This document shows positions 2,586 to 61,861 of a stretch of DNA of 64,000 bases, in pieces. Below the pieces are notes generated by a model. That model was not told the origin of the DNA. It saw only the letters and a program-made list of their open reading frames with translations, and did not search any database. Source of the DNA: a virus; IMG/VR virus record IMGVR_UViG_3300045988_089199, positions 1-64,000 of that record. The stretch is one strand, 5' to 3'. Positions within the stretch are counted from its first letter, which is position 1, and every line of letters begins with the position of its first letter. Made by a program: the position numbers and the translations under genes.

Positions 2586-2619
2586 TATATAGTATAGAAA
2601 AAATTACCATTTTGCTAAC
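2586..2619 (-). promoter_or_regulatory. class B phage promoter motif, copy 1
   Basis: Minus strand reads GTTAGCAAAATGGTAATTTTTTCTATACTATATAC. There are 22 nt from the G of GTTAG to CTATAC. The stop codon of the upstream gene (2615..2617) lies inside the GTTAGC box. Confidence 0.6.
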
Positions 2620-3514
2620 AATAACTTAAAATTTCTATTATTAAACTATAACAAGCTACTACACCTTCATATTTGCCTGTCTTTACTCCCTGATCATACT
2701 TTTGTACTAATCGTAGTGCAGTAAGTAATTTAGCAGGCTCTATACGGTTATAACGTAGTATATTATTACATATCCAACTATTAATACCAGTTATTTTAGC
2801 AATATCTTCTTCCCCTCTATATCCTTCTACTAATACACATTTATGGAGTTGAGAATATATGGCATATATAATACCCATTGCATTATTTTTATCCTCCAAT
2901 AACTGGTCTAATAATCTAAATGTCAATTGTTCATCTTTTTTCATTATGGCATCTGCTAGTTGAAATACAGTCACTTCTTCTTTTGTTGGTATATACTCAT
3001 CTACTATCTTTTTATTCAGTTCTTTTATTCCTGATCTCTTGAATATATCAAGATAATTATTTATTGTATTCAAATCATTATTACACGCCTCTATAAAATA
3101 TTGTTTATTACTTACACTACAGTCCATATTGACCACATTTAATAGTTGTTTTGTTGTCATATGATTGAATTCTACTACACAATTATTTAATTCCTTTATA
3201 AATTTTTTACATTTACTCGGCGTTGTAACTTGTACTACTAATACTGCATTTCTAATTTTATTACTTATACTGCCCCACGTTTTTTCACTCTTAATAAAAT
3301 CCATATCATCTCTAACTACATATACTGCAAATTTACCGCCTATTAGTTTACTTGTTATTTTGTTATATATGTCAGCCACTCTATCTATACGCACTACATT
3401 ACCCATTTGTTTTAAGTATATATTTTGCAGCTCAATTTCTTCTCCAGTAAAAATATAAAAGGGAAGTAAATTACCTTCCCTTATTTGCCCCTGTAAGTCT
3501 AATAAACCTAACAT
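2615..3514 (-). CDS. holA: DNA polymerase III delta subunit-like clamp-loader protein
   Basis: N-terminus LLPFYIFTGEEIELQNIYL resembles the HolA start. About 300 aa and adjacent to the delta-prime and gamma/tau genes. Start moved to the ATG at 3514 after the GGGAGGA RBS. Confidence 0.5.
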   Translation of the reverse strand: MLGLLDLQGQIREGNLLPFYIFTGEEIELQNIYLKQMGNVVRIDRVADIYNKITSKLIGGKFAVYVVRDDMDFIKSEKTWGSISNKIRNAVLVVQVTTPSKCKKFIKELNNCVVEFNHMTTKQLLNVVNMDCSVSNKQYFIEACNNDLNTINNYLDIFKRSGIKELNKKIVDEYIPTKEEVTVFQLADAIMKKDEQLTFRLLDQLLEDKNNAMGIIYAIYSQLHKCVLVEGYRGEEDIAKITGINSWICNNILRYNRIEPAKLLTALRLVQKYDQGVKTGKYEGVVACYSLIIEILSYC

Positions 3515-3666
3515 AATTTTATTCCTCCCACTATTTGGATTAAATACCATATAGATAATGCTATTACTATAGCACTTATACCATCAATATCCCTATCGCC
3601 TATTGTTTGTGTTATCCAATCAATTACTATACTCATTGCAACTATTAAAACCATAAAATTAAACAT
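3508..3666 (-). CDS. small two-TM membrane protein (52 aa)
   Basis: Found by reading. ATG at 3666; two hydrophobic segments (FMVLIVAMSIVI and ISAIVIALSIWYLIQIV). Stop overlaps the holA-like start. Confidence 0.35.
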   Translation of the reverse strand: MFNFMVLIVAMSIVIDWITQTIGDRDIDGISAIVIALSIWYLIQIVGGIKLC

Positions 3667-3667
3667 A

Positions 3668-3991
3668 TTATTTTCCTCCCTTTTGTTTTTTACGTTTTAT
3701 CCCATGTTTCTTAATGTCCTGTTTTTCCTTTATGTTGTGTTGTTCCTTCATATATAGTATATTATTTAATGTAATTTTACTAAATTCATCTATAAATAAT
3801 TTTTTATTTTTCTTGCTTATCTTGATCCCATTCTCATCTTCATTGATAGCACATACAGTTTCAAAGTGTCTTGCAGCAAACCCACGAACATATTTTTCTT
3901 CACTATACCAAGCAAAACAGTCCTTATAGGCCTCTGCAAATTGTTTAGCGAATTTCTTAATCTCTCTAGCATCATTTTTTAATGGTAACAT
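3668..3991 (-). CDS. hypothetical protein with basic C-terminus
   Basis: 107-aa ORF with AAGGGGG RBS. No motif recognised. Confidence 0.5.
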   Translation of the reverse strand: MLPLKNDAREIKKFAKQFAEAYKDCFAWYSEEKYVRGFAARHFETVCAINEDENGIKISKKNKKLFIDEFSKITLNNILYMKEQHNIKEKQDIKKHGIKRKKQKGGK

Positions 3992-3992
3992 A

Positions 3993-4796
3993 TTATTTCC
4001 CCCTTAAAGTTCTAATATTTAGTACAAATATATCGAATATTAATGGTTTATTTGCTCCTCTTATTCTTAAGTCTCTTAAGGCTAAACTAGTATACTCTAT
4101 CATTTTATAGTCTACATAACTACTATGTTTTTGCTCGTCTATTACCACTTGTTTAAACAGTTCTAAAAATAGTTCCACTGGGTAGCCATCATTCTCTTTA
4201 AATCCTATTGGATTACATATTTTAAAGGCATTACCTGTGCTAACTCTTAATATATTGTTGTATACCTTTAATGCATATTGATACATATTGATGAAATCCT
4301 TATCAACATATTCCAACATTTGGCCCGGTGTTGTGGCTACTTTACATAGTATATCTCTTGGCACTTCTCCTAAGTCGTATAAGTCAAATATATCGTTTAA
4401 CTCATGAGCACTGTAATTATCCATTATTAGTAGTTTCGCTCTACTACGTATTGTTGCTAATAGGTTATCTACATTCCTTACTGCAATCATTATGTAACCC
4501 TTACTAGGTGGTTCCTCCACTAACTTTAGTAGGGCATTTTGTGCAGGAATGGATAGGTTATCACCTTTAATGTAAAATAATGTTGGTGTAGATATAGCAG
4601 TACAATCTTCTATTAATTGTCTAATACCTTCGATATTATTATCTACTAATACATAATTGTAATGATTATTATCAGCTATTATTTTACTCATTAAATGCTT
4701 CCCAGAACCCCTATCACCCCACAATATAAAAAAGTGAGGTATAGGTTGACCATTCAGCTTGGCTTGTAACTTAGCCTGACCTATTATTTTAGACAT
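3993..4796 (-). CDS. holB: DNA polymerase III delta-prime-like clamp-loader subunit
   Basis: Degenerate P-loop GDRGSGKH, LLKLVEEPP box and SRxxx motif (TIRSRAKLL). Start overlaps the end of dnaX. Confidence 0.6.
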   Translation of the reverse strand: MSKIIGQAKLQAKLNGQPIPHFFILWGDRGSGKHLMSKIIADNNHYNYVLVDNNIEGIRQLIEDCTAISTPTLFYIKGDNLSIPAQNALLKLVEEPPSKGYIMIAVRNVDNLLATIRSRAKLLIMDNYSAHELNDIFDLYDLGEVPRDILCKVATTPGQMLEYVDKDFINMYQYALKVYNNILRVSTGNAFKICNPIGFKENDGYPVELFLELFKQVVIDEQKHSSYVDYKMIEYTSLALRDLRIRGANKPLIFDIFVLNIRTLRGK

Positions 4797-5797
4797 AAGA
4801 GTATCAACTCGCTTTCAACTAAATTTTTAGGATTCTGCTCATATTTTATCTTGTCTAATAAGTTATTGATCCCATCCAATATATCTACTAAGTCATACTT
4901 TGAAGTATTAGTTGCTATATGGATACATTGTCGCATTATATCAGTTGGTATCATTGTTAACTCTTTATTTCTTGTTATATTCAGCTTACATAAATCTAGT
5001 ACAAACTTATTTAAGTCCTTTACAAATAGTTTTAAGTCTTTTCCGTCTCTATATATCTTGTCGATTATTTGTATCGGTTCATCTGGTTGTTTATTTATAA
5101 TCCCTTGTACTATTCCTAATAGATGTTCATAATTAGTAATTCCTAAGCAATCTAATACTGCTTGTAGTGTTATCTCATTTGTATAACCTAGTACTGTATC
5201 TAGTTTCATTATGGCATCTCTCATTCCCCCGTCAGCTAATTTTGCTATATACTCTATTGCCTCTACGTTATATGTTAATATACCTTCCTTTTTTAAGATA
5301 TACTCTAATCTTTGTACTATATCGAATTGTGGTATACGTTTAAAGTCAAAACGTTGTAGTCTACTTAATATAGTCGCTGGTATTTTATGTGGATCAGTTG
5401 TACATAGTATAAATATTACTCCCTTTGGTGGTTCTTCTAACACTTTTAATAGGGCATTGAATGCACCGAGACTCAACATATGAACTTCATCTATTATGTA
5501 TACTTTGTATTTACTGTCTAAACTTTTCATTTTACAGTCATCAATTATACTACGTATATTATCAACACCATTATTACTAGCACCGTCTATTTCTATTGGT
5601 TTTCCTTTACCTTCATTTACGTCATTTGCAAATATCCTAGCACTAGTAGTTTTACCAGTTCCAGGGCTTCCGGCGAACAAATAAGCTTGTTTTATCTCTC
5701 CAGTTTCCAATTGGTTAGTTAATACCCTTTTTATATTATCTTGACACACCACGTCATTAAATGTTCTTGGTCTATATTTAGTTGCTAATGCTTCCAT
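4784..5797 (-). CDS. dnaX: DNA polymerase III gamma/tau-like clamp-loader ATPase
   Basis: KYRPRTFNDVVCQ, Walker A GSPGTGKTT, Walker B YIIDEVHML, LKVLEEPP and SRLQRF sensor motifs. Only 337 aa, so gamma-length. Confidence 0.85.
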   Translation of the reverse strand: MEALATKYRPRTFNDVVCQDNIKRVLTNQLETGEIKQAYLFAGSPGTGKTTSARIFANDVNEGKGKPIEIDGASNNGVDNIRSIIDDCKMKSLDSKYKVYIIDEVHMLSLGAFNALLKVLEEPPKGVIFILCTTDPHKIPATILSRLQRFDFKRIPQFDIVQRLEYILKKEGILTYNVEAIEYIAKLADGGMRDAIMKLDTVLGYTNEITLQAVLDCLGITNYEHLLGIVQGIINKQPDEPIQIIDKIYRDGKDLKLFVKDLNKFVLDLCKLNITRNKELTMIPTDIMRQCIHIATNTSKYDLVDILDGINNLLDKIKYEQNPKNLVESELILLCLK

Positions 5798-6129
5798 TAT
5801 AATTCCTCCCTTAATTTTTCTATATAGTCTTTTAGATCCTGTAATGGTATTACTGCATATTCTTCCCCCACCTTCCCAAAGTCAAATACTAACGCACTAT
5901 ATGGTCTATGCATTGCTAATGATTGTTGTTGTAGTTTAGTTATCCATTCTTTCTTTATGGTAAATTGTGTTGCTGGTTGCATTTTAGTCTTACACTCCAC
6001 TATATAAAATGTATCAACTAATACATCGCCCTTTTTCGTATGTCCCGCACCACTATTTGGTGTAACTTCTCCATCCAAGTAGTTTGCTACATATTGTTCT
6101 TGTTCATCACTCTTACTTCTTGTACTCAT
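5797..6129 (-). CDS. Hjc-type PD-(D/E)xK Holliday junction resolvase-like nuclease
   Basis: E..SG..GDVLV..YIVECKTK layout (E, SG, D and ExK in Hjc order), about 110 aa. Confidence 0.55.
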   Translation of the reverse strand: MSTRSKSDEQEQYVANYLDGEVTPNSGAGHTKKGDVLVDTFYIVECKTKMQPATQFTIKKEWITKLQQQSLAMHRPYSALVFDFGKVGEEYAVIPLQDLKDYIEKLREEL

Positions 6130-6158: not shown

Positions 6159-6195
6159 CTATATATAGTATAGGAGGTATCTCTTATTCGCTAAC
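6159..6195 (-). promoter_or_regulatory. class B phage promoter motif, copy 2, with the -10 box inside a hairpin
   Basis: Minus strand reads GTTAGCGAATAAGAGATACCTCCTATACTATATATAGGAGG with the same 22-nt offset. CCTCCTATA/TATAGGAGG forms a 9-bp stem followed by TTTT. The sigma-gene stop lies inside the motif. Confidence 0.5.
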
Positions 6196-6810
6196 TTGTT
6201 CTTTAACTTTTTTAAAAAAATCCTTTACCACACGGGATACATATGCAGGTGATACACTGTACTGATATGCTATGTATGTACCTTTTATGCCGCACAGATA
6301 ATCAGCTATTATAGCACGTTGTTTGTCATTCTTCACATTCTTTAGTTCTTCCCTAATAATTTCTTTTAACTCACGTACTAAAGCACTAAGCTCTACATCT
6401 TCCTTGCTCTCCAAATAATTTTCTAATGAGGTATATCTAATATGTCCATGATGCTTGAGTTGTATATATCCGTCTATAGATAATATCTTATATATATTCT
6501 GTTCTCCATCTGTGGTATATCTATTATGTTTATCCATTCTATTTCTATATTGTCGTAGTTCTCTTTTTATAGCTGGATAAGCAAATGTCGTGAATAATGT
6601 GCCATAGGATGGGTCATAATGGTCGACACACTTCATTATACACTGCCAAGCAACTTGGTACATCTCATCTCTATCATTGTATAATTTATATGGTTTTAAT
6701 AGAGAATATACCATATTGTCTATGTACTGGGGTAATTCATTTATTGCCTCTTTATCTCCATTTTTATATCGCAGAACTATTTCCTGGCACTTATTCCCGT
6801 TATTACTCAT
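6184..6810 (-). CDS. phage sigma-70-family factor (small, about 200 aa)
   Basis: Region 2-like segment YQVAWQCIMKCVDHYDPSYGTLFTTFAYPAIKRELRQY and a C-terminal HTH-like segment IAYQYSVSPAYVSRVVKDF. Confidence 0.65.
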   Translation of the reverse strand: MSNNGNKCQEIVLRYKNGDKEAINELPQYIDNMVYSLLKPYKLYNDRDEMYQVAWQCIMKCVDHYDPSYGTLFTTFAYPAIKRELRQYRNRMDKHNRYTTDGEQNIYKILSIDGYIQLKHHGHIRYTSLENYLESKEDVELSALVRELKEIIREELKNVKNDKQRAIIADYLCGIKGTYIAYQYSVSPAYVSRVVKDFFKKVKEQVSE

Positions 6811-7983: not shown

Positions 7984-8988
7984 TTATATAAATAAATTTC
8001 TAAATATTGCTTCTAGTACATCAACAACTATACTATTTCCTGCCATTTTATATTGTTGTGTATTACTTATACCTGCTTGTTGTATCTTATCTATGTCATC
8101 ATCTTTTAGTCCCATAAGTCTAAAACATTCTCTAGGTGTTAATTTTCTTATTCTATAATCACAATATACAAAAGTATTTGAATTCCCTGCTCTTAATGTA
8201 GGAGTTACCTTTATACCTACTTGATTATCTTGCCATCCACTTTCACACTTACATTGATATATTTCTTTTTCACTTACTGCTATATCATATTTTTCTCTCT
8301 CAAAATTTTTTCTTACACTTGGTTTTATATTACTATCAACTAATATTTCAGGTTGTGTATTTTTATTCATTTGAAGATTTACATTATCAACAAAGTTTTC
8401 ATTCGTATCATCTTCTAATATATCAGCTATACATTTATCTAATTTAATGGGTTCAGGAAATTTATAGGGTTTATGTTCACCTAATATACTAACAACAAAT
8501 ACTCTTTCTCTATTTTGTGGTACACCATAATCTTTAGCATTTAGAACTTGTGGATAATTCGTATATCCTAAACTTTTTAAATATCTTAACCACTCATAAA
8601 ACTGTGGTCTAAATTTTTTACTAACTAGGTTTTTAACATTTTCCATCAATAAATATTTAGGCTTACAATATTCTATTATCTTTTCGCATTCATATAGTAA
8701 TCCACTTCTAGTTTGACCTCTAACGAGTCCTGCTTGTTTCCCTGCAACTGATAAATCTTGACAAGGAAAAGAATATGTAAATAGATCATGTTCTGGAATA
8801 TCTTTTACATCAATTTTACTAATATCACCTAAATTTAATGTTGATCCATGTATTGCCTCATACGCTTGTATTGCATACTTGTCTATTTCACTTATAGCTA
8901 CTACCTCGTAGTCTATTCCTATATTCCTTAATGCTATTGATTGACTACCATATCCTGCAAAAGCCTCAAATACCTTAAGTTTACTCAT
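7984..8988 (-). CDS. DNA (cytosine-5) methyltransferase
   Basis: Motif I FAGYGS, motif IV FPCQDLS, ENVKNL, QNRERVF and the C-terminal GNS motif. Confidence 0.9.
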   Translation of the reverse strand: MSKLKVFEAFAGYGSQSIALRNIGIDYEVVAISEIDKYAIQAYEAIHGSTLNLGDISKIDVKDIPEHDLFTYSFPCQDLSVAGKQAGLVRGQTRSGLLYECEKIIEYCKPKYLLMENVKNLVSKKFRPQFYEWLRYLKSLGYTNYPQVLNAKDYGVPQNRERVFVVSILGEHKPYKFPEPIKLDKCIADILEDDTNENFVDNVNLQMNKNTQPEILVDSNIKPSVRKNFEREKYDIAVSEKEIYQCKCESGWQDNQVGIKVTPTLRAGNSNTFVYCDYRIRKLTPRECFRLMGLKDDDIDKIQQAGISNTQQYKMAGNSIVVDVLEAIFRNLFI

Positions 8989-9012
8989 CAAACCACTCCT
9001 TTATTTGTATTC

Positions 9013-9056
9013 TATATATAGTATAGAAAAAGTGGGTGATTTACTAACCACCCACT
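9013..9056 (-). promoter_or_regulatory. class B promoter motif, copy 3, fused to a terminator hairpin
   Basis: Minus strand reads AGTGGGTG-GTTAGTAAAT-CACCCACT-TTTT-CTATACTATATATAG. The -35-like box is the loop of an 8-bp hairpin, and the hairpin T-tract is the promoter spacer. Confidence 0.6.
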
Positions 9057-10029: not shown

Positions 10030-10507
10030 CACTACAACACTCCTTTAATTGAGCCATTAAGAATAACCTACTGTCAAAGGTTTCTTTATTCAAAGTAAAA
10101 TTAATCCTTTGGTACGTAACTGGTAATTTGGAAATAGCTACTATAATCTCACAATCATCTACAGTTAAACTTTGTTTATTATTTTGCATTGTTCTATTTA
10201 TAGTACTCCATGGTATCATATATACTTGTTTATGCTCTCTGAACTCCACTACTACCATTGGATTACAACCTTGTACATGACTATAGAAGTCCAACTGTTC
10301 CTTTTGGTTATCTGTTATATTACTAAAATCAAACCTACTGCCCTTTACACTTTTTAGCTCAAATAAATACTGATATGGATATTTGTAGTAGATAAAATCA
10401 CAGGGGTTTTTTACCCCTGCATATCCATTAGTGGTGTCGTATAATCTAACTAATTCTTTACCAACACCCTTTTTAAAATTATTTTCAAACTTCTTACCAT
10501 AGTTCAT
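10022..10507 (-). CDS. recU: RecU-like Holliday junction resolvase
   Basis: MNYGKKFE start, DF..YLFELKS (D..ExK) and NITDNQKEQL motifs in RecU order. Start moved to the ATG at 10507 to remove the long overlap with the HNH gene. Confidence 0.55.
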   Translation of the reverse strand: MNYGKKFENNFKKGVGKELVRLYDTTNGYAGVKNPCDFIYYKYPYQYLFELKSVKGSRFDFSNITDNQKEQLDFYSHVQGCNPMVVVEFREHKQVYMIPWSTINRTMQNNKQSLTVDDCEIIVAISKLPVTYQRINFTLNKETFDSRLFLMAQLKECCSDE

Positions 10508-11015
10508 TTGTATCCTCCTCAACATAGCGCCAGTGATAGCCACCAGCAGTTTTTCTTTTTCCTTTACAAACGGCACTAATACTGGATTGACTAATTCCAG
10601 TTTGTTTACCAGCTTTATTTATTGATTCGTACTGTGTGTTAGTTTCCACACATATAACTTTTATAGCTCTAGTAGATTTCAATAATCCCGTATCATATGC
10701 GTGTTTTACATTATAACTAGCAGTGCACCACTCCAAATTATATAAGGCGTTATTTTGTTTATTACCGTCAATATGGTTAACATAGGGTAAATTATCCGGG
10801 TTTGGAATAAAGGCTTCTGCTAGTAATTTATGTAAACATTTAGGCACTGCTTTTTCTCCATCAAACAACGTTACTTGATAATAACCTGTATTATTAATAT
10901 GAGGACTAATATACTTAGGTGTAATATTTTTTAAAGATAATACATCACCTTTTGTATTTATAAAATACATAGGAAAATTATTTAGTTGTTTCCATGGTGT
11001 ATTTTTAACTTTCAT
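10494..11015 (-). CDS. free-standing HNH homing endonuclease (NUMOD4 / HNH_3 type)
   Basis: WKQLNNFPMYFINTKGDV, then HKLLAEAFIPNP..VNHIDGNKQNN..NLEWCT, plus a C-terminal HTH-like tail. Start taken at MKVKNTPW (11015). Confidence 0.8.
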   Translation of the reverse strand: MKVKNTPWKQLNNFPMYFINTKGDVLSLKNITPKYISPHINNTGYYQVTLFDGEKAVPKCLHKLLAEAFIPNPDNLPYVNHIDGNKQNNALYNLEWCTASYNVKHAYDTGLLKSTRAIKVICVETNTQYESINKAGKQTGISQSSISAVCKGKRKTAGGYHWRYVEEDTNELW

Positions 11016-11772
11016 CTCGCATGCACACTCCTCGGTACTTACAATAGTTACATTTAGGTTCCTTTGGTGGCAACACGTCAAATTTAACACAGTCATTTAC
11101 ATATTGGATAGTGTCTTCTATACTCTCAATCATTTCTTGTGGCACTTCAAATAAATAACCTTTTTTGCTGCAATTGTCTCTATTTTCATAAATAAATATT
11201 ACTTTTGGAACTCCTATACACATTGAGTAACAAGCTGCTTGTAATTTGTGTCCTTGGTGTGGCTCCTCGTGGGAGTTGTATTTGTGGGTACTTTCAGTTT
11301 TAATTTCTATTATATAGTACTCACCTTTATATTGCACTAATCCATCACACATAAAACGCATATTATATTTCTTACTAAATAACTTAGTTTCATTACCTTC
11401 CTGTGATACCACTTGGGGATCAGTAACTCCCTTACTATGTAAATAATCACCAACATTTATCCATTTGCAATGCCCGGTGTATTTTGCCATTTGTTGTATA
11501 TAATCTTGTATTGTCTCATGTCTATCAGTCCCACTCTCACAGATGCCAACTAAATTTACACCACTACTTTGTTCATCTGGTTGTGCTCCTATCATTTGGT
11601 AATACAAACTTCTTTTACATCCAGCTATCCCACTAGGTTTATATGATCTAGTGGGTATATAATCACTCTCATTCTCCTTCTCTATTGTATATATTAAGTC
11701 ATTTACAAATTGTTGAGCTATCTCATTACTCTTTTCAGCTCTAACCATTTTGGCTATTTTATTTAACTTCAT
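11005..11772 (-). CDS. Cas4/RecB-like PD-(D/E)xK exonuclease with Cys cluster
   Basis: CDG..IIEIKT (D..ExK), QAACY, one N-terminal Cys (GCKRSLYY) and C-terminal CNYCKYRGVC, giving a 4-Cys Fe-S-type layout. Confidence 0.7.
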   Translation of the reverse strand: MKLNKIAKMVRAEKSNEIAQQFVNDLIYTIEKENESDYIPTRSYKPSGIAGCKRSLYYQMIGAQPDEQSSGVNLVGICESGTDRHETIQDYIQQMAKYTGHCKWINVGDYLHSKGVTDPQVVSQEGNETKLFSKKYNMRFMCDGLVQYKGEYYIIEIKTESTHKYNSHEEPHQGHKLQAACYSMCIGVPKVIFIYENRDNCSKKGYLFEVPQEMIESIEDTIQYVNDCVKFDVLPPKEPKCNYCKYRGVCMRDES

Positions 11773-11783: not shown

Positions 11784-12842
11784 CTATTCTTCGTCGGCAG
11801 TTGCCAACATCATTATACTATCCTTAGTACATAGCTTAATAGTTTCATCTGTCCCAAATTCTATTGTCACTCCCGGTTCATCTACTGCACTAAATAAGTC
11901 CTTTAAATAACCCCCATTTACGCTTATCATAAATGGTTCCGGTAAATCTATCCCTTTAGTATATTCAACCACCTCTACGGACTTGCTAGAGGTTGCTATG
12001 GTCATATTACTGTCACTAAATACTAAGTCTATAATACCTCTATCATATGGACCCACAAATAAGTTCAATCTATCTAGTGCTTGTAAAACTTTCTTAACAT
12101 CCACCTCGCAAGTATATGGATATTTACCATTCAATAATGGAACTACATTTGGATACTCAGCTGCCCCTTCCTGTAATGCTCCTGTAATAATTATGTTCTG
12201 TCCTATTGCTCTTAATAATGTACAATCCTTATTTACCGTAAATATTACCTTCTCTGTATCTATAGATTGTAATAAATTGGCTAAAGTTGGAGGTATTAAT
12301 AATTCCATGTCATCCAGATACTCACCGTCCAACTCTGTACTATATACCTTTATGGCATCTGCAGTAATAAGTTGATTATCTCGTAGTAAGTAACTATATA
12401 ATACACCATCATTAGATGATGTACTTTTGGCTTTTGCACCATCAACTATTGCATTACTCAAAGTTGTATATGTTATCATAAACTCTTTATCAGCATCTAT
12501 ATCCAAAGTTGGATATACTTCATCACTAACTATTTCTACTTTATATGTACCATTACCTTTTACCTCTAAATAATTGTCCATTAATTTAAGTCCTACTGTA
12601 TCTTTAGTAGTTTTATTTATCAACTTACTAAATTGATCAGCTTTAACTATAACATTCATTTCATCCTCGCATTTTGTTGGATGATTAATTGTTATGAAGT
12701 TAACTCCATCTGTAGCTCTAAGAGATATACCCTCAACACTAAAATCTAATTCATAGTAATTAGTTATTTCTAATAATTTACTAGGTTTGCATCTACTCGC
12801 TGCACTTAACATATTCTTTAAAACACTTGTATCTAATTTCAT
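11784..12842 (-). CDS. dnaN: DNA polymerase sliding clamp (beta-like)
   Basis: 352 aa. The N-terminus (L..ML..A.....KP..LEI...) resembles DnaN. Lies between the polymerase and the nuclease, and clamp-loader genes are present. Confidence 0.55.
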   Translation of the reverse strand: MKLDTSVLKNMLSAASRCKPSKLLEITNYYELDFSVEGISLRATDGVNFITINHPTKCEDEMNVIVKADQFSKLINKTTKDTVGLKLMDNYLEVKGNGTYKVEIVSDEVYPTLDIDADKEFMITYTTLSNAIVDGAKAKSTSSNDGVLYSYLLRDNQLITADAIKVYSTELDGEYLDDMELLIPPTLANLLQSIDTEKVIFTVNKDCTLLRAIGQNIIITGALQEGAAEYPNVVPLLNGKYPYTCEVDVKKVLQALDRLNLFVGPYDRGIIDLVFSDSNMTIATSSKSVEVVEYTKGIDLPEPFMISVNGGYLKDLFSAVDEPGVTIEFGTDETIKLCTKDSIMMLATADEE

Positions 12843-12878
12843 TATAGAACATCTCCTTTATTTTTTTTCTTCCATACA

Positions 12879-12916
12879 ATTATAGTATAGAAAAAACCCG
12901 GTATTTACTAACCGGG
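12879..12916 (-). promoter_or_regulatory. class B promoter motif, copy 4, with the -35 box in a hairpin loop
   Basis: Minus strand reads CCCGG-TTAGTAAATA-CCGGG-TTTTTT-CTATACTATA. Same architecture as copy 3 but with a 5-bp GC stem. Confidence 0.5.
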
Positions 12917-15351: not shown

Positions 15352-16035
15352 CTAAAATTCATCATCTACAACTCTACGTCTTCTACTTTCCCTTCTTGGT
15401 GCTTCTTCACGTCTAGTTGGAGCAGGCTCAACATCATTATGAGATTTATTTCCGCCCCAGTCATATATACCGTCCACTATATCTATCATGTCCGCTTTAC
15501 TAACTTTTGTAATATAAGTTCCTTCTATATTAACTTTTTCAGGGAAGTCATCTAAACATTTACCATCTTTTTCTAATGCGAACATTTCATAAGTTGTATT
15601 AGTATCACCTTTTTTACCCTTACGTTCTATTTCTATTGGACGTTCTACCAAGCTGCCATATCTATTTAAGAAACTAACTATTTTTCCTACAAAGTTTTTA
15701 CCTCTCTCCCAAATTTTAAGTTTGCCATCTGTCTCATCATATAATTGTAGGAATAGTTTTTCTTGTGTTCTATATCCAGCTTTACATAGTGGGCAATCAT
15801 CTTTATGTATATGTCCATCCTCATCTACTGCATTACAACTTACATATTTTCTTACTTTCTTACCGTTGACCTCAATCTCTATTTGATGTACTAAGAAGAA
15901 ATCCATATCTCCACCTTCTGGATCATCATACAACATTCTTACTTGAGCTATATCTCCATCATCTTTTAATGTGAAATATTCACTTGTACCCACATTTGTA
16001 AATTTACCTGCATCTTTAATATTTATTCTAGCCAT
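15352..16035 (-). CDS. gp32-like single-stranded DNA-binding protein (putative)
   Basis: Zn-type cluster C-x7-H-x-H-x3-C-x2-C (CNAVDEDGHIHKDDCPLC), an Arg-rich linker and an acidic C-terminal tip DDEF. Located in the replication module. Confidence 0.45.
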   Translation of the reverse strand: MARINIKDAGKFTNVGTSEYFTLKDDGDIAQVRMLYDDPEGGDMDFFLVHQIEIEVNGKKVRKYVSCNAVDEDGHIHKDDCPLCKAGYRTQEKLFLQLYDETDGKLKIWERGKNFVGKIVSFLNRYGSLVERPIEIERKGKKGDTNTTYEMFALEKDGKCLDDFPEKVNIEGTYITKVSKADMIDIVDGIYDWGGNKSHNDVEPAPTRREEAPRRESRRRRVVDDEF

Positions 16036-16071: not shown

Positions 16072-16107
16072 CATATATAATATAGAAATATGTTACCATT
16101 TACTAAC
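16072..16107 (-). promoter_or_regulatory. class B promoter motif, copy 5
   Basis: Minus strand reads GTTAGTAAATGGTAACATATTTCTATATTATATATG with the 22-nt offset conserved. Confidence 0.55.
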
Positions 16108-16271: not shown

Positions 16272-16742
16272 TTAATCACATTTTATATAATAACCTTTAC
16301 CAAGTTTAATCCAATTGTCTACAGTGTGTCTACACACTCCCAATTTCTCTGCTGCTTCGGATTGACTCGCGTAATATTCTCCATTTATAACGCAAGGCTT
16401 ATAACCCGGAGTTGATAGCCCTGTTTTAAACGCATGTATATTATTGTATGATTGAGTACACCATTCCAAATTCTCAATCCGATTATTTGCTTTATTCCCA
16501 TCTATATGATTGATTATTGGTAATTTATTGGGATTAGGAATAAAAGCTTCTGCTACTAATCTATGCGCCTTATAATCTTTTCGCTTTCCTGTTACAGTAT
16601 CTCTTATATAATAATGTACATAACCATTCTTATCCCTACGAATATTTAATAATCTAAATCTTCTAACAAGGGATATTACAAATCCCCTGTTAGATATAAA
16701 ATACTTGTGATTAAATTCTAACCTATGATATTTTAATACCAT
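16272..16742 (-). CDS. free-standing HNH homing endonuclease
   Basis: HRLVAEAFIPNPNKLPIINHIDGNKANNRIENLEWCT plus a C-terminal HTH-like tail. Immediately downstream of nrdJ. Confidence 0.85.
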   Translation of the reverse strand: MVLKYHRLEFNHKYFISNRGFVISLVRRFRLLNIRRDKNGYVHYYIRDTVTGKRKDYKAHRLVAEAFIPNPNKLPIINHIDGNKANNRIENLEWCTQSYNNIHAFKTGLSTPGYKPCVINGEYYASQSEAAEKLGVCRHTVDNWIKLGKGYYIKCD

Positions 16743-18879: not shown

Positions 18880-19681
18880 CGTTTACACCCCTACTTTCGT
18901 AGTACTTTAACACATTTTATTTCAAATGTGGGACTAGACTATCTCTTCACCTTCAACTTCACTTGTTAAGGTGTCCTGCACTTCGAGTGGCAGCCTATCT
19001 TCCACCCTACTATTAGTCGTTACACTTTTCAATACTAACATTCCCGGTTTTATAAAAATGTCTTAAGCTCGATATACTAGAGCTATAATGTTTATTTGCA
19101 TATTCAGCAGCTTCTTTTATACTGTTAAACTCACCTACAATTTTATCATCAACTTTTAGTTTGCACTTAATATCTGTAGTATGGTTCCCTTTTCTCCCTA
19201 AGTGTGTATATGAATATCTAGTATTGTAAGCGGCTGTGCACCATTCTAAATTAGTAAAATGATTATTTTTAATGTTCCCATCCATATGATTTACTACCTC
19301 ATAATTATTAGGATTATTTAGAAATGCTTTAGCCACCAATTGATGGATTCTTCTAAAGTATCTACCTTATCATTTCTTAATCCTATGTATAAATAACCAT
19401 CCTTATCCAATTTAGGTTTCATGATTCTTAAATTCTTTTTACCATATACTTTATATATAGTTCCATATTCATTTATTATGTAATTTGGGAATTCTTCAAT
19501 TATTCTCCACATAATATCACCCCTATGTGGAAATGTTAGTATTAACTTAGCACGGTATTGTCCTCGACTTCACGTTAGGAGTTCCACCGTTAGCACGATT
19601 TCTCGTACACCCCTAGGCAATAGGGTTCACAGGATTATTTTCTATCTTATTTCTAAGATAGGGTGGCTAAACTTATTGTCT
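18880..19681 (-). mobile_element. group I intron 1 (802 nt) carrying an HNH endonuclease ORF
   Basis: Interrupts SYGG|GCGVDIS. The 5' exon ends in T (GGT) and the insert ends in G (AAACG). GC-rich structured flanks (19513..19681 and 18880..19012) surround the HNH ORF. Confidence 0.7.
19013..19512 (-). pseudogene. intron-encoded HNH homing endonuclease, disrupted by a 1-nt frameshift
   Basis: Two overlapping ORFs (19318..19512 and 19013..19339). Read together they give ..DKDGYLYIGLRNDK/GRYFRRIHQLVAKAFLNNP..VNHMDGNIKNN..NLEWCT, colinear with the intact HNH genes at 10494 and 16272. The frame changes near 19370. Confidence 0.6.
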
Positions 19682-20016: not shown

Positions 20017-20052
20017 TATATATAGTATAGTAAGACCTCCCTATTTACTAAC
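20017..20052 (-). promoter_or_regulatory. class B promoter motif, copy 6, with the -10 box in a hairpin
   Basis: Minus strand reads GTTAGTAAATAGGGAGGTCTTACTATACTATATATAGTAAGAC. GTCTTACTATA/TATAGTAAGAC forms an 11-bp stem (20009..20035) followed by TTTTT. The sigma-gene stop TAG lies in the GTTAG box. Confidence 0.55.
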
Positions 20053-20650
20053 CTAATAAATAATTTAATTTCTTTTGTAATGCTCTTCTAATACCGACAA
20101 CACCTGCAGTGCTAACTCCAATTTCTCTCGCCATATGAGATTGTTGTAAGTCACACATATGGTCTAGTGCTACCATGCAATATTGAAGTTGTTTTGGTGA
20201 TAGATCTTCTTTATTAACTAAATCGGATAATTCAACTTTATCGTATTCATCTTCAATGCTTGTTTCTTCCCATCTATCCTCAGTTGTTTCAAAGCAACTC
20301 ATTGGAGTACATTGATCACCATTGTTGGCTTTTCTCTTATTGCTTGAGTTACTTTGTGTTAGAGTTCTAAGAGCATTCTTAATATAAACACATATCATAC
20401 TAGTTAATTTACCACTACTATTCTTTTCAGGATTATAATTTTCAAAACATTTCCAAATTTGTTCTAATATAATACTTGTAACTTCGTCAGTACTTACACC
20501 AACATATTTTTTACTTACTTGGTAAAATAAATTTTTATTCATTTCAAATACATATGCAATAACTTCATTATGTAATCCTGCTTGGTAATCTTTTAATAAT
20601 TCCTCATCAGTGTGTTCCATTCCATATACTTTTACTACATCATTAAACAT
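20048..20650 (-). CDS. phage sigma-70-family factor (small, about 200 aa)
   Basis: Region 2-like segment IILEQIWKCFENYNP..MICVYIKNALRTL and region 4-like HTH LSPKQLQYCMVAL..MAREIGVSTAGVVGIRRALQKKL. Preceded by sigma-A-type promoter A2. Confidence 0.6.
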   Translation of the reverse strand: MFNDVVKVYGMEHTDEELLKDYQAGLHNEVIAYVFEMNKNLFYQVSKKYVGVSTDEVTSIILEQIWKCFENYNPEKNSSGKLTSMICVYIKNALRTLTQSNSSNKRKANNGDQCTPMSCFETTEDRWEETSIEDEYDKVELSDLVNKEDLSPKQLQYCMVALDHMCDLQQSHMAREIGVSTAGVVGIRRALQKKLNYLLG

Positions 20651-20701: not shown

Positions 20702-20730
20702 ATTATATTGTTACTTATATAATTATGCAA
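20702..20730 (-). promoter_or_regulatory. sigma-A-type promoter, copy A2
   Basis: TTGCAT (20730..20725), 17-nt spacer, TATAAT (20707..20702). About 50 nt upstream of the sigma-like gene start. Confidence 0.6.
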
Positions 20731-20737: not shown

Positions 20738-21730
20738 TTATAAGTTTATTGGTGAAATTTTTAATTTGCTAAATTCCGTGTCTAAATCGTTGATGTCTCT
20801 ACTATCTAAGTAGTTTACTTTGCTCAATAACTTTGTCTTACCTAAATGATGTAATAATTTTCTACTTCCTTTTTTACCCGCCTCATCGGGGTCCAATGCT
20901 ATTATATAATGTCTAATAGGTAACTTATTCAACATAGCATACTGATTCCCTCCTCCAGTACCAAATAAACATATTGCTGGGTGTCCTAACTTCCACAGTG
21001 TTAGCATATTAAAAGGTGATTCCACTATATATACTGGTTGTTTATATAGTTTTAATTTCATAACTTCACTTGCCCCTAATAGATAATCAGTTTTACTAAC
21101 CCCACTTGGTATATAGTAGGTTTTCCCTATAATACTTCTACGTTGTATCCATTTTACCTCACCTTTTAAATTGGGAACTGGTATAGTTATGCAGTCATCT
21201 CTACGGTCATATCCAATATCAAACTGTTCAATAATGTCATCCGTTAAACCACGCGAATACATATAACCAACAGTGTATCTGTAACCTTGTAGCACCTCCT
21301 GTGGCACGTTTGGTAGGTCTTCTTGAGTAATTCTTCGTCTACTTAAATTTAGCTCCACCTTACGGGTTTTAACAGTTAGTCCTGTATTATACTGAGCTTT
21401 AATCCATTTATTCCCAAATATTCCACCATCGTTATATCCAAAACAAGAACTGATAAAACTGGTTAGTGAAGCAGTATATCCACAAGTAAAACAATGCACT
21501 GTCCCAGGTTCTATTAGTTTAGATCCCTGATACTTCGGTACAATAGAAACCCCACAAGAGGGCTTATGCTCATGTCCGTCTTTATGTACTGGACAAGTTA
21601 TCATAATATTATCTCCTGTGGGTTTTATATCATTTAATAAAAATATGCCATTACTCATCAAACTACCTTTTAAATCAATTAATAATTGATGATACGTTGT
21701 ATCAATTTCCATGCCATTTACATTAATCAT
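20738..21730 (-). CDS. dnaG: DnaG-type DNA primase (zinc finger plus Toprim)
   Basis: CPVHKDGHEHKPSC...CFTCG zinc-binding motif. Toprim E (VESPFN) and DPDEAG. Confidence 0.75.
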   Translation of the reverse strand: MINVNGMEIDTTYHQLLIDLKGSLMSNGIFLLNDIKPTGDNIMITCPVHKDGHEHKPSCGVSIVPKYQGSKLIEPGTVHCFTCGYTASLTSFISSCFGYNDGGIFGNKWIKAQYNTGLTVKTRKVELNLSRRRITQEDLPNVPQEVLQGYRYTVGYMYSRGLTDDIIEQFDIGYDRRDDCITIPVPNLKGEVKWIQRRSIIGKTYYIPSGVSKTDYLLGASEVMKLKLYKQPVYIVESPFNMLTLWKLGHPAICLFGTGGGNQYAMLNKLPIRHYIIALDPDEAGKKGSRKLLHHLGKTKLLSKVNYLDSRDINDLDTEFSKLKISPINL

Positions 21731-21881
21731 TATCACACAACTCCCATCTACTATGGTTTTCTATCCACTCGTCTAAACATTCAGTACTACAAAAGTTTAA
21801 TTCTTTGTAACTGCAATAATCTGGAAGTTCTAACACAATGTAATCATAGTCTAATCTTTCCTCACATTGTTCACACTTCAT
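21723..21881 (-). CDS. small Cys-rich protein (52 aa)
   Basis: Found by reading: AGGAGGG RBS, then MKCEQCEERL...CSTECLDEW. Stop overlaps the primase start. Confidence 0.5.
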   Translation of the reverse strand: MKCEQCEERLDYDYIVLELPDYCSYKELNFCSTECLDEWIENHSRWELCDND

Positions 21882-22039: not shown

Positions 22040-22055
22040 ATAATCAACTCCTTTA

Positions 22056-22089
22056 AATATATTATATTTTATTATTTAAATTTACTAAC
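22056..22089 (-). promoter_or_regulatory. class B-like promoter, divergent copy 7b (-10 reads TATAAT)
   Basis: GTTAGTAAATTTAAATAATAAAATATAATATAT, with the same 22-nt offset and CTATAC replaced by ATATAA. Confidence 0.45.
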
Positions 22090-22099: not shown

Positions 22100-22197
22100 A
22101 AAAAGAAAAACCCCTGACACTGTCCGCTCCAATGTCAGGGTAAAAAAAAGGGGAGTTATATTATGAGTAGAAGAATGTGCCTCCACATTTCCTCTAC
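22100..22197 (-). ncRNA. candidate small RNA 1 (promoter-to-terminator unit without an ORF)
   Basis: Bounded by class B copy 7a and the terminator at 22104..22140. Predicted RNA is about 95 nt with a 5' imperfect hairpin, an unpaired ACUCCCCUUUU tract and a terminator hairpin. No RBS plus start codon. Confidence 0.35.
22104..22140 (-). terminator. rho-independent terminator
   Basis: Stem CCCTGACA/TGTCAGGG (22112..22119 and 22133..22140), followed by GTTTTTCTTTT on the minus strand only. Confidence 0.7.
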
Positions 22198-22232
22198 ATA
22201 TATAGTATAGAAAAAAATGCCAATTTACTAAC
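22197..22232 (-). promoter_or_regulatory. class B promoter motif, copy 7a
   Basis: GTTAGTAAATTGGCATTTTTTTCTATACTATATATGTA. The dnaB stop TAG lies inside the GTTAG box. Confidence 0.6.
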
Positions 22233-24257: not shown

Positions 24258-24292
24258 ACTTATAGTATAGTAAAAATTCTAATTTTACTAAC
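24258..24292 (-). promoter_or_regulatory. class B promoter motif, copy 8b
   Basis: GTTAGTAAAATTAGAATTTTTACTATACTATAAG, starting right after the terminator T-tract. Confidence 0.55.
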
Positions 24293-24389: not shown

Positions 24390-24424
24390 ATATATAGTAT
24401 AGAAAAAATCATTGTTTTACTAAC
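24388..24424 (-). promoter_or_regulatory. class B promoter motif, copy 8a
   Basis: GTTAGTAAAACAATGATTTTTTCTATACTATATATGTA. Confidence 0.6.
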
Positions 24425-58809: not shown

Positions 58810-58895
58810 TTGTTTTGAGAAAACAAAGAAAACATCATTAATACGAGGTTTTAATGGGTAACCAAGAACCTTTGTCATATCTATATATTAATTTT

Positions 58896-58925
58896 ATGGA
58901 CAAAATATTAACTAAAAATGGACAA
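58896..58925 (-). repeat. two direct TTGTCCAT boxes spaced 22 nt apart
   Basis: atggacaa occurs at 58896..58903 and at 58918..58925 (plus strand), between the terminator and the extended -10 box. Confidence 0.5.
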
Positions 58926-58955: not shown

Positions 58956-58963
58956 TTAATAAG

Positions 58964-59344: not shown

Positions 59345-59494
59345 CTATTTATAAAATATTTCTCCATAAGTTTTATTGCTAGTTATGCATCTATCTATTA
59401 TGTCTATTATCTCTTGCTCAGTAAGTCCTTCTACATCCATTAATGGAAAGTATTGTTCAAATTTGTCTAAGTAGTTTTGTAATTTTTCTCTCAT
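59345..59494 (-). CDS. small hypothetical protein (49 aa)
   Basis: Found by reading: AAGGAG RBS, then MREKLQNYLDKFEQYF... Confidence 0.45.
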   Translation of the reverse strand: MREKLQNYLDKFEQYFPLMDVEGLTEQEIIDIIDRCITSNKTYGEIFYK

Positions 59495-59507: not shown

Positions 59508-59543
59508 TATATATAGTATAGAAAAACTTATCTATTTACTAAC
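59508..59543 (-). promoter_or_regulatory. class B promoter motif, copy 13 (inside the head module)
   Basis: GTTAGTAAATAGATAAGTTTTTCTATACTATATATAAGGAG. Confidence 0.6.
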
Positions 59544-60552: not shown

Positions 60553-61293
60553 TTAAATTGAAGCTATAATACGTTGTGCTAATGGTCTTAATCTCTCATA
60601 CCAACCAACACGCTCTGCATCTTTTATTTGTGTACCATACATTTCAATATATAATTGTGTTACCTTTTGTGCCATATTTTCAAGTTCTTTGTTAGTTAAT
60701 CGCTTTTTAGGTTCATTACCATGTTGATATGCTATTAAATTATTTTCCTTATAATAATGTAAAATATAGTCCTGTTCTGTCATAGGTTTTAATAATTCCC
60801 AATTTTCCCATTGTAGATCATCGATCCATGGTATCGCATATACATCCCCATCAAATACATCTTGCTTGTTGTATTGTGGTTTATGTTTATTAATTAAATA
60901 TCGTTCAGCAACCATTTGGTTGGCTTTATTATTAATTCTCACACATTTAATAGCAGCAACTTTATCATAACATTCCTGTACTAAATGTCCATCTTTCGTA
61001 AAATGTTCACGAGTTAATCTTGTTAATAATCTATTTGTTTTTCCAACATATATTATAGTTCCATATTTATCATAAAATAAATATAACCAAGAACCACTAT
61101 ATTTATTTTTCATATCTTCCTTATATTGTTTATAGGCTTCCTTAGCCTCATTCATAGCTAAATTATGTTTTAAGTTCCAATTCTTCACTGTCTTATAATA
61201 TTCGTAGTTTATATATTCTTCTGCATGCTCTTGTATTTCTTCTTCAGATAAAGTTGTAAAGTCCCCATATATTTCATTGAAAGTTATTTTCAT
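60553..61293 (-). CDS. GIY-YIG domain nuclease (free-standing, putative homing endonuclease)
   Basis: WLYLFYDKYGTIIYVGKTNRLLTRLTREH ... AERYLINKHKPQYN, with the GIY, YxG, R, E and N elements in order. Confidence 0.65.
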   Translation of the reverse strand: MKITFNEIYGDFTTLSEEEIQEHAEEYINYEYYKTVKNWNLKHNLAMNEAKEAYKQYKEDMKNKYSGSWLYLFYDKYGTIIYVGKTNRLLTRLTREHFTKDGHLVQECYDKVAAIKCVRINNKANQMVAERYLINKHKPQYNKQDVFDGDVYAIPWIDDLQWENWELLKPMTEQDYILHYYKENNLIAYQHGNEPKKRLTNKELENMAQKVTQLYIEMYGTQIKDAERVGWYERLRPLAQRIIASI

Positions 61294-61333
61294 ATATAAA
61301 ACCCCCCATAATAATTATATCTCTTTTAATATA

Positions 61334-61362
61334 ATTATATTATATGGGAGGTTATTATGCAA
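61334..61362 (-). promoter_or_regulatory. sigma-A-type promoter, copy A4
   Basis: TTGCAT (61362..61357), 17-nt spacer, TATAAT (61339..61334). About 40 nt upstream of the GIY-YIG gene. Confidence 0.5.
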
Positions 61363-61365
61363 CAA

Positions 61366-61797
61366 CTATTTTATATATCCTTTATATTTTTCTTTTAATT
61401 CTTTACCTCTCTCAGCTATATCTCGTCTAAGCTCTGTTATTGTGTCCATATAATCTTTTTCCTTCTTATTTACTCTATCTTGTATCTCTTGTGGTACAAA
61501 TCCACGTATTTTAATTTGTTCATTTACATCATATCTATTCTTATATTGGATCTTTGTAAAAGTTTCTAAGAGATCTTGTAGTTGTGCCATCTCTCTACGT
61601 AGTTGATTATCAGTTACTACAGTTACATACTGTTTACCACATCTACATTCAAACCCTCTAATAATTATACATCCTTTTAGTAGCATTAATTCTTTTTCTC
61701 TTGGGTAAAACTCTCTACCACATTTATCACATTTAGCTTTAAATTTTAATTGTTTTTCCCCTTTACGTCCTTTAGTCCATCCACCTTGTTTACTCAT
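61366..61797 (-). CDS. zinc-ribbon protein
   Basis: CDKCG...CRCG motifs followed by a coiled-coil C-terminus. ATG at 61797 after GGGAGG. Confidence 0.5.
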   Translation of the reverse strand: MSKQGGWTKGRKGEKQLKFKAKCDKCGREFYPREKELMLLKGCIIIRGFECRCGKQYVTVVTDNQLRREMAQLQDLLETFTKIQYKNRYDVNEQIKIRGFVPQEIQDRVNKKEKDYMDTITELRRDIAERGKELKEKYKGYIK

Positions 61798-61824
61798 ATC
61801 AATCAACCTCCCAAATTTTTTATT

Positions 61825-61861
61825 CTATATATAGTATAGAAAATTATTCAGTTTTGCTAAT
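61825..61861 (-). promoter_or_regulatory. class B promoter motif, copy 14 (overlaps the portal gene end)
   Basis: ATTAGCAAAACTGAATAATTTTCTATACTATATATAG. The portal stop lies inside the motif. Confidence 0.5.

Follow-up and report, generated by a model that had tools for sequence, protein, structure and literature searches.

When one bipartite sequence recurs in a single orientation and with a single spacing in front of the genes of a phage, the question arises whether the host RNA polymerase reads it unaided or is reprogrammed by a factor of the phage. The question is raised here by a stretch of 64,000 nt (positions 1 to 64,000 of the IMG/VR record IMGVR_UViG_3300045988_089199), which is called the window in its whole length. 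The source is an uncultured gut phage with a circular or permuted genome of ~68 kb, in which a rigid 36-bp promoter element, the motif, occurs about 20 times. The window also encodes two small proteins, sigma1 (6184..6810) and sigma2 (20048..20650), which resemble the sigma-70 family to different degrees. A preliminary description of the window had proposed that the motif copies are promoters of a middle class read by a phage sigma factor, and had made no distinction between the two proteins. The existence of a phage-specific promoter class is well supported. As to its reader, we favour, with a probability of about 0.6, host core RNA polymerase carrying sigma2, within a cascade that would lead from host sigma-A to sigma2, from sigma2 to the motif, and from the motif to the late genes.

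The repeated element

A pattern search for GTTAGYAAA-N13-CTATACTATATAT with at most three mismatches gave 19 matches in the window, where shuffled sequences would yield 0.03; all lie on the minus strand. Eighteen of them had been listed in the preliminary description and were all recovered; the nineteenth is a weaker copy at 3750-3784, within the open reading frame (ORF) 3668..3991. A log-odds matrix derived from the copies gives the 19 scores of 24-44 bits; the scan listed scores down to 8 bits and contains no other site on either strand. An own-written, unsupervised seed-and-refine motif finder, run blind on the intergenic gaps, arrives at the same 19 sites. The rigid spacing and single orientation claimed earlier hold throughout, the spacer being N13 in 19/19 copies; neither N12 nor N14 occurs, and the opposite strand has no copy.

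The placement of the copies, which are named here by their higher coordinate, is also far from random. The window is 92.8% coding with all genes on the minus strand, and yet 18 of the 19 copies are intergenic or run across the preceding gene's stop codon (binomial P about 5e-20), in agreement with the intergenic location described before. The upstream stop codon falls inside the motif in six copies (2619, 6195, 20052, 26403, 28014 and 61861) and overlaps only its first base in copy 22232, which together account for the seven overlaps counted previously. Start codons follow 11-38 nt 3' of 12 copies, the bipartite boxes lying upstream of the genes and co-oriented with them, and therefore the ribosome-binding site comes almost at once. 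From 28014 to 59509 the matrix scan found no copy, and the long late operon of structural genes is thus free of the motif, as stated before. The head region holds two copies in the window (59543 and 61861) instead of the three reported. The ~4.3 kb of the genome outside the window add at least one more, to judge from a copy at ~10040 in the 95%-identical relative L010.

Close relatives (1.2 Mb) yielded 612 motif hits, which reduce to 246 distinct copies, and no locus among them has hits on both strands, as the strand bias proposed for the class predicts. In these 246 copies, positions 1-9 (GTTAGTAAA) and 23-35 (CTATACTATATAT) are near-invariant, spacer positions 10-17 hold essentially zero information, and positions 18-22 are T-rich. 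Position 36 was no part of the matrix used in the search and yet is a purine, G or A, in 100% of the copies. On these sequence grounds the 36-bp element is identified as a promoter, in which GTTAGTAAA would occupy the -35 position, TATACT, 16-17 nt downstream, would be the -10 hexamer, and ATATAT the discriminator. With TATACT as the -10 hexamer, motif position 36 is the expected +1, and transcription would thus start at this purine.

Could the copies rather be bound by a protein of replication, partition or packaging, or be remnants of terminators? Their density is highest in the replication module, a T-run closes the spacer, and two of them (9048 and 12912) hold the box in the loop of a convincing terminator-like hairpin, whose T-run is at the same time the promoter spacer. 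However, only these 2 of the 19 have a real hairpin, and the other 17 lack the combination of GC-rich hairpin and T-run that marks an intrinsic terminator. The orientation is strict, the copies lie immediately upstream of ribosome-binding sites, and the -10-like TATACT is followed by an invariant purine at which the 5' hairpins of the downstream RNAs start. A role other than that of a promoter is hence improbable in the extreme.

The two composites of terminator and promoter span 9014-9060 and 12878-12925 of the window (minus strand) and have counterparts in L079, L080 and L084-L086. This cassette is commoner in lineages X and Y (see below) than in the window, and it explains part, not all, of the TTTTT that had been noticed in the spacer. 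That the T-run is always the tail of a terminator was ruled out by the count of 2/19 convincing hairpins, and an automated flag performed no better than its shuffled control. A generic sigma-70 scan was uninformative as promoter evidence in such AT-rich DNA, with 81 sites against 101 expected.

Copies 22232 and 24424 are each followed by a unit of ~95 nt that has no ORF and is closed by an intrinsic terminator. In both units a conserved 5' hairpin starts exactly at motif position 36. They flank the DnaC/DnaB operon, are kept in lineages W and X with a few compensatory pairs, and contain an unpaired C-rich stretch (ACUCCCC / AACCCCUU), plus UCCCCCC in the terminator loop. From their layout they are candidate small RNAs, and their C-rich motifs might pair with Shine-Dalgarno sequences. 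Neither unit has a match in Rfam; region 17900-28100 has none at E<=1 except one at chance level on the wrong strand, and the window as a whole shows no transfer RNA or transfer-messenger RNA gene and no Rfam family at the gathering threshold.

Two promoter classes

Reading of the gaps that have no motif brought out a second class, TTG(C/A)AT-17-TATAAT, with four members in the window and shared flanks such as aaaaTAGTTGCATAATTATATAAGTA...TATAATATAAGTATAAA. These promoters, called canonical here, fit the sigma-A consensus in the TTG, the 17-nt spacer and the TATAAT. The motif and the canonical class are discrete, and no site in the window has an intermediate score. The upstream hexamer of the motif, TTAGTA, matches TTGACA at 3/6 positions, and in 246/246 copies it has A as its third base where TTG has G. 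TATACT lies 16 nt after TTAGTA and matches the sigma-A -10 hexamer TATAAT at 5/6 positions, with T1, A2, T3, A4 and T6 invariant. In the preliminary description, conservation beyond the two hexamers was taken to speak against sigma-A. This argument is weak, since the four canonical promoters and those of the relatives are as stereotyped beyond their hexamers as the motif is, and therefore long conservation alone does not exclude sigma-A.

The two classes differ in their behaviour among relatives. Distant relatives were fetched via homologues of both sigma-like proteins and of DNA polymerase. All of them share the gene orders primase, sigma2, ribonucleotide reductase and RecA, sigma1, resolvase, and all have a motif of like geometry at like gene positions, for example straddling the stop codon of sigma1. 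The sequence of the motif drifts with the lineage (W, to which the window belongs, X, Y and Y', U and V, Z, and the cultured phages phiCTP1 and Dp-1; Table 1), and this is true of the downstream box as well (TATACT, TATATT, TATATA, TGATATAAT). The TTG..-17-TATAAT class stays canonical in every lineage, and a promoter of this class stands directly before the sigma2 gene in W, X, U, V, phiCTP1 and Dp-1. Drift of the motif beside a fixed host-type class is expected if a co-evolving phage-encoded factor reads the motif, and is unexpected if one conserved host sigma-A reads both.

The latter case would mean that the motif copies are phage-flavoured sigma-A promoters read by the host holoenzyme alone, that their uniformity reflects selection for a set strength, and that the phage sigma factors serve later genes only. 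It can appeal to the 5/6 match of TATACT with TTAGTA 16 nt upstream, and to the boxes of sister lineages, TTAACA/TTTACA with TATATA/TATAAT; the GenBank record of Dp-1 annotates such sites as ordinary -35/-10 promoters. The true sigma-A-type promoters of the window being equally stereotyped, uniformity by itself proves nothing, and weak use by sigma-A could bootstrap the system. But the G of TTG occurs in 0/246 upstream hexamers, nothing stands between the two classes, and the canonical class does not change between lineages or hosts, in contrast to the motif boxes, which drift far from the consensus (TTAGTA, CTTTAAT). The host holoenzyme is thus unlikely to be the sole reader. What had been said of the class stands in so far as it is distinct from the sigma-A type, occurs with two sigma-like genes and serves a replication-module regulon; its dependence on a phage sigma factor is our inference, and its -10 hexamer is close to the sigma-A consensus.

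Candidate readers of the motif

Sigma1 is clearly a member of the sigma-70 family (Pfam Sigma70_r2, E=3.9e-7; phrog_351, E=9e-23). Sigma2 resembles sigma factors only weakly in sequence (phrog_351, E=1.6e-8; Pfam region 2, E=0.11), and its best PDB profile match is region 4 of SigF (E=0.17). Its AlphaFold model, built from a narrow alignment, is mediocre, with a predicted local distance difference test (pLDDT) value of 63, and 70-86 in the N-terminal domain. When the model was compared with the PDB by Foldseek, sigma factors made up 17 of the 20 top matches, none of them at E<=0.001, and the N-terminal domain matches sigmaE region 2 in complex with -10 DNA at a template modelling (TM) score of 0.67-0.70. 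Accordingly, the membership claimed earlier for both proteins is clear for 6184..6810, and for 20048..20650 it is weak by sequence and sigma-like by predicted fold. A search for relatives of sigma2 in 185,579 species-representative bacterial genomes found none and gave no host or prophage clue.

The wiring of the two genes bears on their order of action. The sigma1 gene invariably stands at the end of an operon behind the motif (copy 9048 in the window), in which no gap is left for a second promoter, and its stop codon is spanned by a further motif copy. Since in every lineage its transcription would thus depend on the motif, sigma1 cannot be the first to activate the class, and the factor that does so must predate sigma1. 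It is still conceivable that sigma1 reads the motif in a self-reinforcing loop and that sigma2 acts differently, on late genes or as a co-factor. Sigma1 does possess the significant Sigma70_r2 domain, the copy at its stop codon is kept in all lineages, and both sigma-like proteins diverge in parallel with the motif. Such a loop is quite improbable, since sigma1 has no sigma-A-type promoter of its own with which the class could be started, and since its recognition helix does not follow the boxes: it is nearly unchanged between W and Y despite their differing boxes, and it takes at least five forms among lineages with TTAACA.

Sigma2 shows a closer correspondence. Its predicted region-4.2 recognition helix is identical in W and X (VSTAGVVGIRRALQ), both of which use GTTAGTAAA, although the whole proteins share just 67% identity. 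In U, V and Z, whose box is T(T/A)AACA, the helix has the form ISR(A/S)GA...; in Dp-1 (TTTACA) it is VSRS... and in phiCTP1 (CTTTAAT) ITSAGV.... Over all fetched sequence, loci with the helix VSTAGVVGIRRA (VSTAGVV) prefer TTAGTAA over TTAACA by 452:8 (49 loci), and those with ISRAGAN prefer TTAACA over TTAGTAA by 241:10 (31 loci). The choice between the two proteins, not made in the preliminary description, is thereby narrowed to sigma2, which is favoured by its sigma-A-type promoter and by the tracking of helix and box, and not to sigma1, which is itself motif-driven.

A more specific pattern concerns the second position of the sigma2 helix. It is Arg where the box has ACA, that is in V and U (TTAACA), Z (TAAACA) and Dp-1 (TTTACA), and it is Thr or Ser where the box is without C, in W and X (TTAGTA) and in phiCTP1 (CTTTAAT). 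We take this position to correspond to R584 of sigma-70, which presumably makes contact with the C:G pair at -31. Together with its promoters, the sigma2 family may form natural orthogonal sigma/promoter pairs whose box specificity is set by the few residues that start the region-4.2 recognition helix, a tentative and rather doubtful proposal. If it were true, box specificity would be re-programmable by one or two substitutions, and the lineages of gut phages would be a ready-made specificity table.

A mechanism of sigma appropriation has also to be considered, in which host sigma-A would contact TATACT and a phage DNA-binding protein, similar to MotA, would bind the GTTAGTAAA box. The protein could be the product of 20048..20650 itself, given that it has a clear C-terminal helix-turn-helix beside marginal sigma signatures in sequence and that its phiCTP1 homologue is annotated as a 'response regulator'. 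A near-consensus sigma-A -10 beside an upstream box of another kind is likewise what this mechanism would produce. Yet the predicted N-terminal domain of sigma2 superposes on sigma region 2 and most of its fold matches are sigma factors, PHROG scans of ~50 window proteins (all from outside the tail region) gave no match like MotA or AsiA, and the downstream box drifts by lineage too, which fits a factor that reads both boxes. Appropriation of this kind is very improbable.

Several points weigh against sigma2 as the reader. Its membership in the sigma family depends on a PHROG match and a model of pLDDT 63, with no significant Pfam or PDB sequence match. In the window, read-through from motif copy 22089 could transcribe its gene as well. 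The co-variation of box and helix amounts to few clade-level events, in which both sigma-like proteins diverge in parallel, and for this reason it is not statistically independent. In L103, a 4.5-kb contig with four copies, the sigma2 helix is W-like (STAGVLG) but the box is TAACAAAA. The sigma2 of lineage Y, the most informative case, was not found via IMG/VR, the protein database, or JGI/ENA metagenomes queried with the Y polymerase. TATACT matches the sigma-A -10 at 5/6 positions and the sister-lineage boxes (TTAACA ... TATATA/TATAAT) are near the sigma-A consensus, so the host holoenzyme may use motif sites at least weakly. Finally, the phage is uncultured and known here from sequence alone.

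Order of gene expression

The genes behind motif copies encode SSB, DNA polymerase, the sliding clamp, a Cas4-like nuclease, RecU, dUTPase, the C5-methylase/RecA/sigma1 operon, resolvases, the clamp loader, DnaC/DnaB, primase, ribonucleotide reductase, an Ant-like protein, replication-initiator-like proteins and ThyX. This set of replication, recombination and nucleotide-metabolism functions fits a typical middle (delayed-early) class, the timing being suggested by gene content. The two copies in the head region precede small genes of no assigned function, and the unit behind 59543 is closed by a terminator.

With sigma2 as the reader, the order of events would be as follows. Host sigma-A holoenzyme would use the few TTGnnT-17-TATAAT promoters, one of them directly before sigma2. 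Host core RNA polymerase with sigma2 would then transcribe from the ~20 motif copies, the targets being the replication, recombination and nucleotide-metabolism genes, the two putative small RNAs, a few small head-region genes and the sigma1 operon. Sigma1, the candidate late sigma, would probably then serve the structural operons, which have different promoter-like elements behind terminators.

The scaffold/capsid/tail operon does begin behind a terminator with an element unlike the motif, and a similar layout of terminator plus leader precedes the small-terminase operon. The bipartite element that precedes the scaffold gene may be a late promoter and would then form a third class. In the same interval (58872-58964, minus strand), the terminator hairpin after the 122-aa ORF shows compensatory changes in relatives, and a highly conserved leader of ~110 nt precedes the scaffold gene. 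A late-promoter pattern, TTAATAT-N14-TNATATATAG, was tried and is not enriched in the window (3 matches against 1.3 expected). As there is no statistically supported late motif, the assignment of sigma1 to the late genes draws on the analogy of known cascades.

An exact 24-nt repeat, ACACAATTTGAATCAATTGCGTAA, with CAATTG palindromes occupies two gaps of the late region (32032-32055 and 34397-34420, minus strand), one before the 511-aa ORF and one before the endolysin; none is expected by chance. It may be the site of a regulator or a late promoter.

Genome context and other features

No close relative was found among deposited phages by DNA search, which returned only patches of ~70-140 nt that are ribonucleotide-reductase exon sequence. 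IMG/VR and public metagenomes hold dozens of contigs of ~65-72 kb that are about 85% identical to the window. The nearest cultured phages, Streptococcus phage Dp-1/MS1 and Clostridium phage phiCTP1, are distant (DNA polymerase ~45% and capsid ~48% identical). Along the direction of transcription, the gene order is packaging and head, tail, endolysin, terminator and a long replication module. By comparison with L010, only ~4.3 kb of the genome lie outside the window, between positions 64000 and 1. This portion (L010 6974-11313) encodes small proteins, one with a lipoprotein signal peptide (MMKKLMSLGLVGILSASLMVGC...), and includes, besides its motif copy, a terminator with conserved leader, the gene of the small terminase and the first part of that of the large one.

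The ribonucleotide-reductase gene (16762-19981, minus strand) consists of three exons with exact junctions in protein coordinates: 19981-19682 (aa 6-105), 18879-18472 (aa 106-241) and 18201-16762 (aa 241-721). The intervening sequences measure ~802 nt (with ORFs 19318..19512 and 19013..19339) and ~270 nt, and the gene is unbroken in six close relatives. They are probably self-splicing introns private to this genome, for which the Rfam intron models gave no match at E<=1. Three HNH/endonuclease-like ORFs on the minus strand (10494..11096, 16272..16742 and 60553..61293) are inserted between conserved genes, the first overlapping its neighbours; they are likely to be mobile homing endonucleases, and their positions vary among relatives.

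The window encodes a C5 cytosine methylase (7984..8991). In sister lineages, a QueC / PTPS / radical-SAM / GTP-cyclohydrolase I cluster follows the DNA polymerase gene (L082 16453-18812, L084 629-3520 and L079 2512-3033, the last also with QueT), which suggests 7-deazaguanine modification of the DNA. Similar queuosine-pathway genes are presumably present in Dp-1.

Table 1. Motif copies, other predicted promoters and associated genes of the window, followed by the form of the motif in each lineage
Feature	Position	Strand	Remarks
Motif copy, ATTAGCAAA-N13-CTATACTATATAT	61827..61861	-	overlaps portal stop codon; 29 nt before ORF 61366..61797
Canonical promoter, TTGCAT-17-TATAAT	61334..61362	-	before endonuclease-like ORF 60553..61293 in head module
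Motif copy, perfect	59509..59543	-	14 nt before 49-aa ORF 59345..59494, then 122-aa ORF, terminator, scaffold gene
Candidate late-class promoter	58872..58911	-	before scaffold gene, after terminator; boxes TTAGTTAATATTTT and TTAATATATAGATATGACAA, variable spacer; pattern kept in 11 relatives
Canonical promoter, TTGAAT-17-TATAAT	30993..31021	-	after endolysin terminator, before 889-aa helicase gene
Motif copy, weaker	27980..28014	-	overlaps stop of ORF 27996..28274; 77-nt leader to ORF 27519..27902
Motif copy	27100..27134	-	first of tandem pair 75 nt apart; after terminator 27174-27150
Motif copy, perfect	27025..27059	-	105-nt leader to ORF 26650..26919
Motif copy	26369..26403	-	overlaps stop of ORF 26399..26638; then AT-rich stretch of ~180 nt with no ORF
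Motif copy, weak (29 bits)	26155..26189	-	26 nt before ORF 25229..26128
Motif copy	25193..25227	-	38 nt before Ant/KilAC-like ORF 24435..25154
Motif copy, perfect	24390..24424	-	predicted to drive ORF-less unit 2
ORF-less unit 2	24296..24389	-	~94 nt, layout as unit 1; kept in lineages W and X; behind copy 24424
Motif copy	24258..24292	-	11 nt before DnaC-like/DnaB operon (23527..24246, 22232..23527)
Motif copy, best score (44.5 bits)	22198..22232	-	first base is last base of DnaB stop codon; predicted to drive ORF-less unit 1
ORF-less unit 1	22105..22197	-	~93 nt; 5' hairpin from motif position 36, C-rich single strand, terminator; behind copy 22232
Motif copy, weakest (24 bits)	22055..22089	-	15 nt before two small ORFs and primase gene 20738..21736
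Canonical promoter, TTGCAT-17-TATAAT	20702..20730	-	directly upstream of sigma2
Sigma2	20048..20650	-	200 aa, divergent sigma-70 family; C-terminal helix-turn-helix ...REIGVSTAGVVGIRRALQKKL; proposed motif reader
Motif copy, perfect	20018..20052	-	overlaps sigma2 stop codon; 36 nt before exon 1 of ribonucleotide reductase gene
Motif copy	16073..16107	-	37 nt before SSB gene 15352..16035, then DNA polymerase gene
Motif copy	12878..12912	-	upstream box is loop of 11-bp hairpin ending in T-run; 35 nt before sliding-clamp gene 11784..12842
Motif copy, perfect	9014..9048	-	box in loop of 13-bp hairpin; predicted to drive C5-methylase / RecA / sigma1 operon
Sigma1	6184..6810	-	208 aa, sigma-70 family; translationally coupled to RecA; predicted to be transcribed from copy 9048
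Motif copy	6161..6195	-	overlaps sigma1 stop codon; 31 nt before resolvase gene 5797..6129 and clamp-loader genes
Motif copy (28 bits), additional to the earlier list	3750..3784	-	inside ORF 3668..3991
Motif copy	2585..2619	-	overlaps stop of clamp-loader gene 2615..3514; 15 nt before ORF 2321..2569
Canonical promoter, TTGCAT-17-TATAAT	43..71	-	would fire into the ~4.3 kb of genome outside the window
Lineage W			window and ~85%-identical relatives; GTTAGTAAA ... CTATACTATATAT
Lineage X			sigma1 67-72%, sigma2 ~67% identical; GTTAGTAAA ... aTATAtTATATAT
Lineages Y and Y'			(C/G)TTAACA ... TATATATT(G/A)TAT
Lineages U and V			aGTTAACA-N17-TATATAATATA-tGTAAG
Lineage Z			GT(A/T)AACA-N15-CTATATAW
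phiCTP1			CTTTAAT-N13-TGATATAAT; 8 copies, one strand, unannotated in record
Dp-1			GGTTTACAAA ... GTATA(A/T)T

Relation to known phages and implications

Phage SPO1 has middle promoters of the form AGGAGA/TTTNTTT and late promoters of the form CGTTAGA/GATATT, and the consensus of the motif is unlike them, in that it keeps a sigma-A-like -10. The likeness to SPO1 lies in the logic of the cascade: an early sigma-A promoter drives a small phage sigma, which drives the next sigma, the corresponding genes here being sigma2 and then sigma1 behind the motif. SPO1 itself is a 130-kb myovirus, whereas the present genome, of ~68 kb and a single orientation, is siphovirus-like. The early genes of SPO1 are served by host sigma-A, its middle genes by gp28 and its late genes by gp33/gp34, and the middle class includes the late sigma gene(s) (PMC13401047). 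In phiEco32 and Salmonella phage 7-11, conserved low-copy intergenic motifs were assigned to a phage sigma beside host-sigma promoters, and temporal classes were predicted (PMC4331800). The inference from genome sequence is of the same type as here; however, those phages are Gram-negative podoviruses with one sigma, and phiEco32 was biochemically validated, whereas the present case has two sigma-like proteins, ~20 copies and cross-lineage co-variation, all read from sequence. The middle promoters of T4 resemble the motif in having a host-like -10 and a phage-specific box (the MotA box) in place of the -35. They differ in that the present phage has sigma-like genes and, among the ~50 proteins scanned, no MotA/AsiA homologue, and in that its box stands at -35 with rigid spacing to the -10.

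Dp-1 and phiCTP1 share with the window the synteny of primase with the gene in the sigma2 position and of sigma with resolvase, as well as the same two promoter classes, including a TTG..-17-TATAAT promoter before the sigma2-position gene. Their boxes are unlike those of the window (CTTTAAT-N13-TGATATAAT in 8 copies in phiCTP1; GGTTTACAAA...GTATAAT in Dp-1). The phiCTP1 gene gp43 (L162 10841-11467), deposited as a 'putative response regulator', is homologous to sigma2 in sequence and matches it in position. In Dp-1 the sigma2-position gene is at L163 45034-45648, and the sites of the equivalent class, annotated as generic promoters, probably belong to the phage-specific class. Among the papers covered, a literature search found no transcription study of Dp-1 or phiCTP1. 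As both phages are cultured, the model is directly testable in them.

On this model the finding is another sigma cascade of the SPO1 type and introduces no new principle; what it adds is the two-sigma model and a natural table of boxes and helices. It gives a testable transcription map for widespread uncultured gut phages of about 70 kb, which occur in human and other gut metagenomes and are distant kin of Dp-1 and phiCTP1, and it assigns roles to two sigma-like genes that are unannotated or mis-annotated. The lineage-specific pairs of box and helix could, moreover, serve as orthogonal expression parts for Firmicutes.

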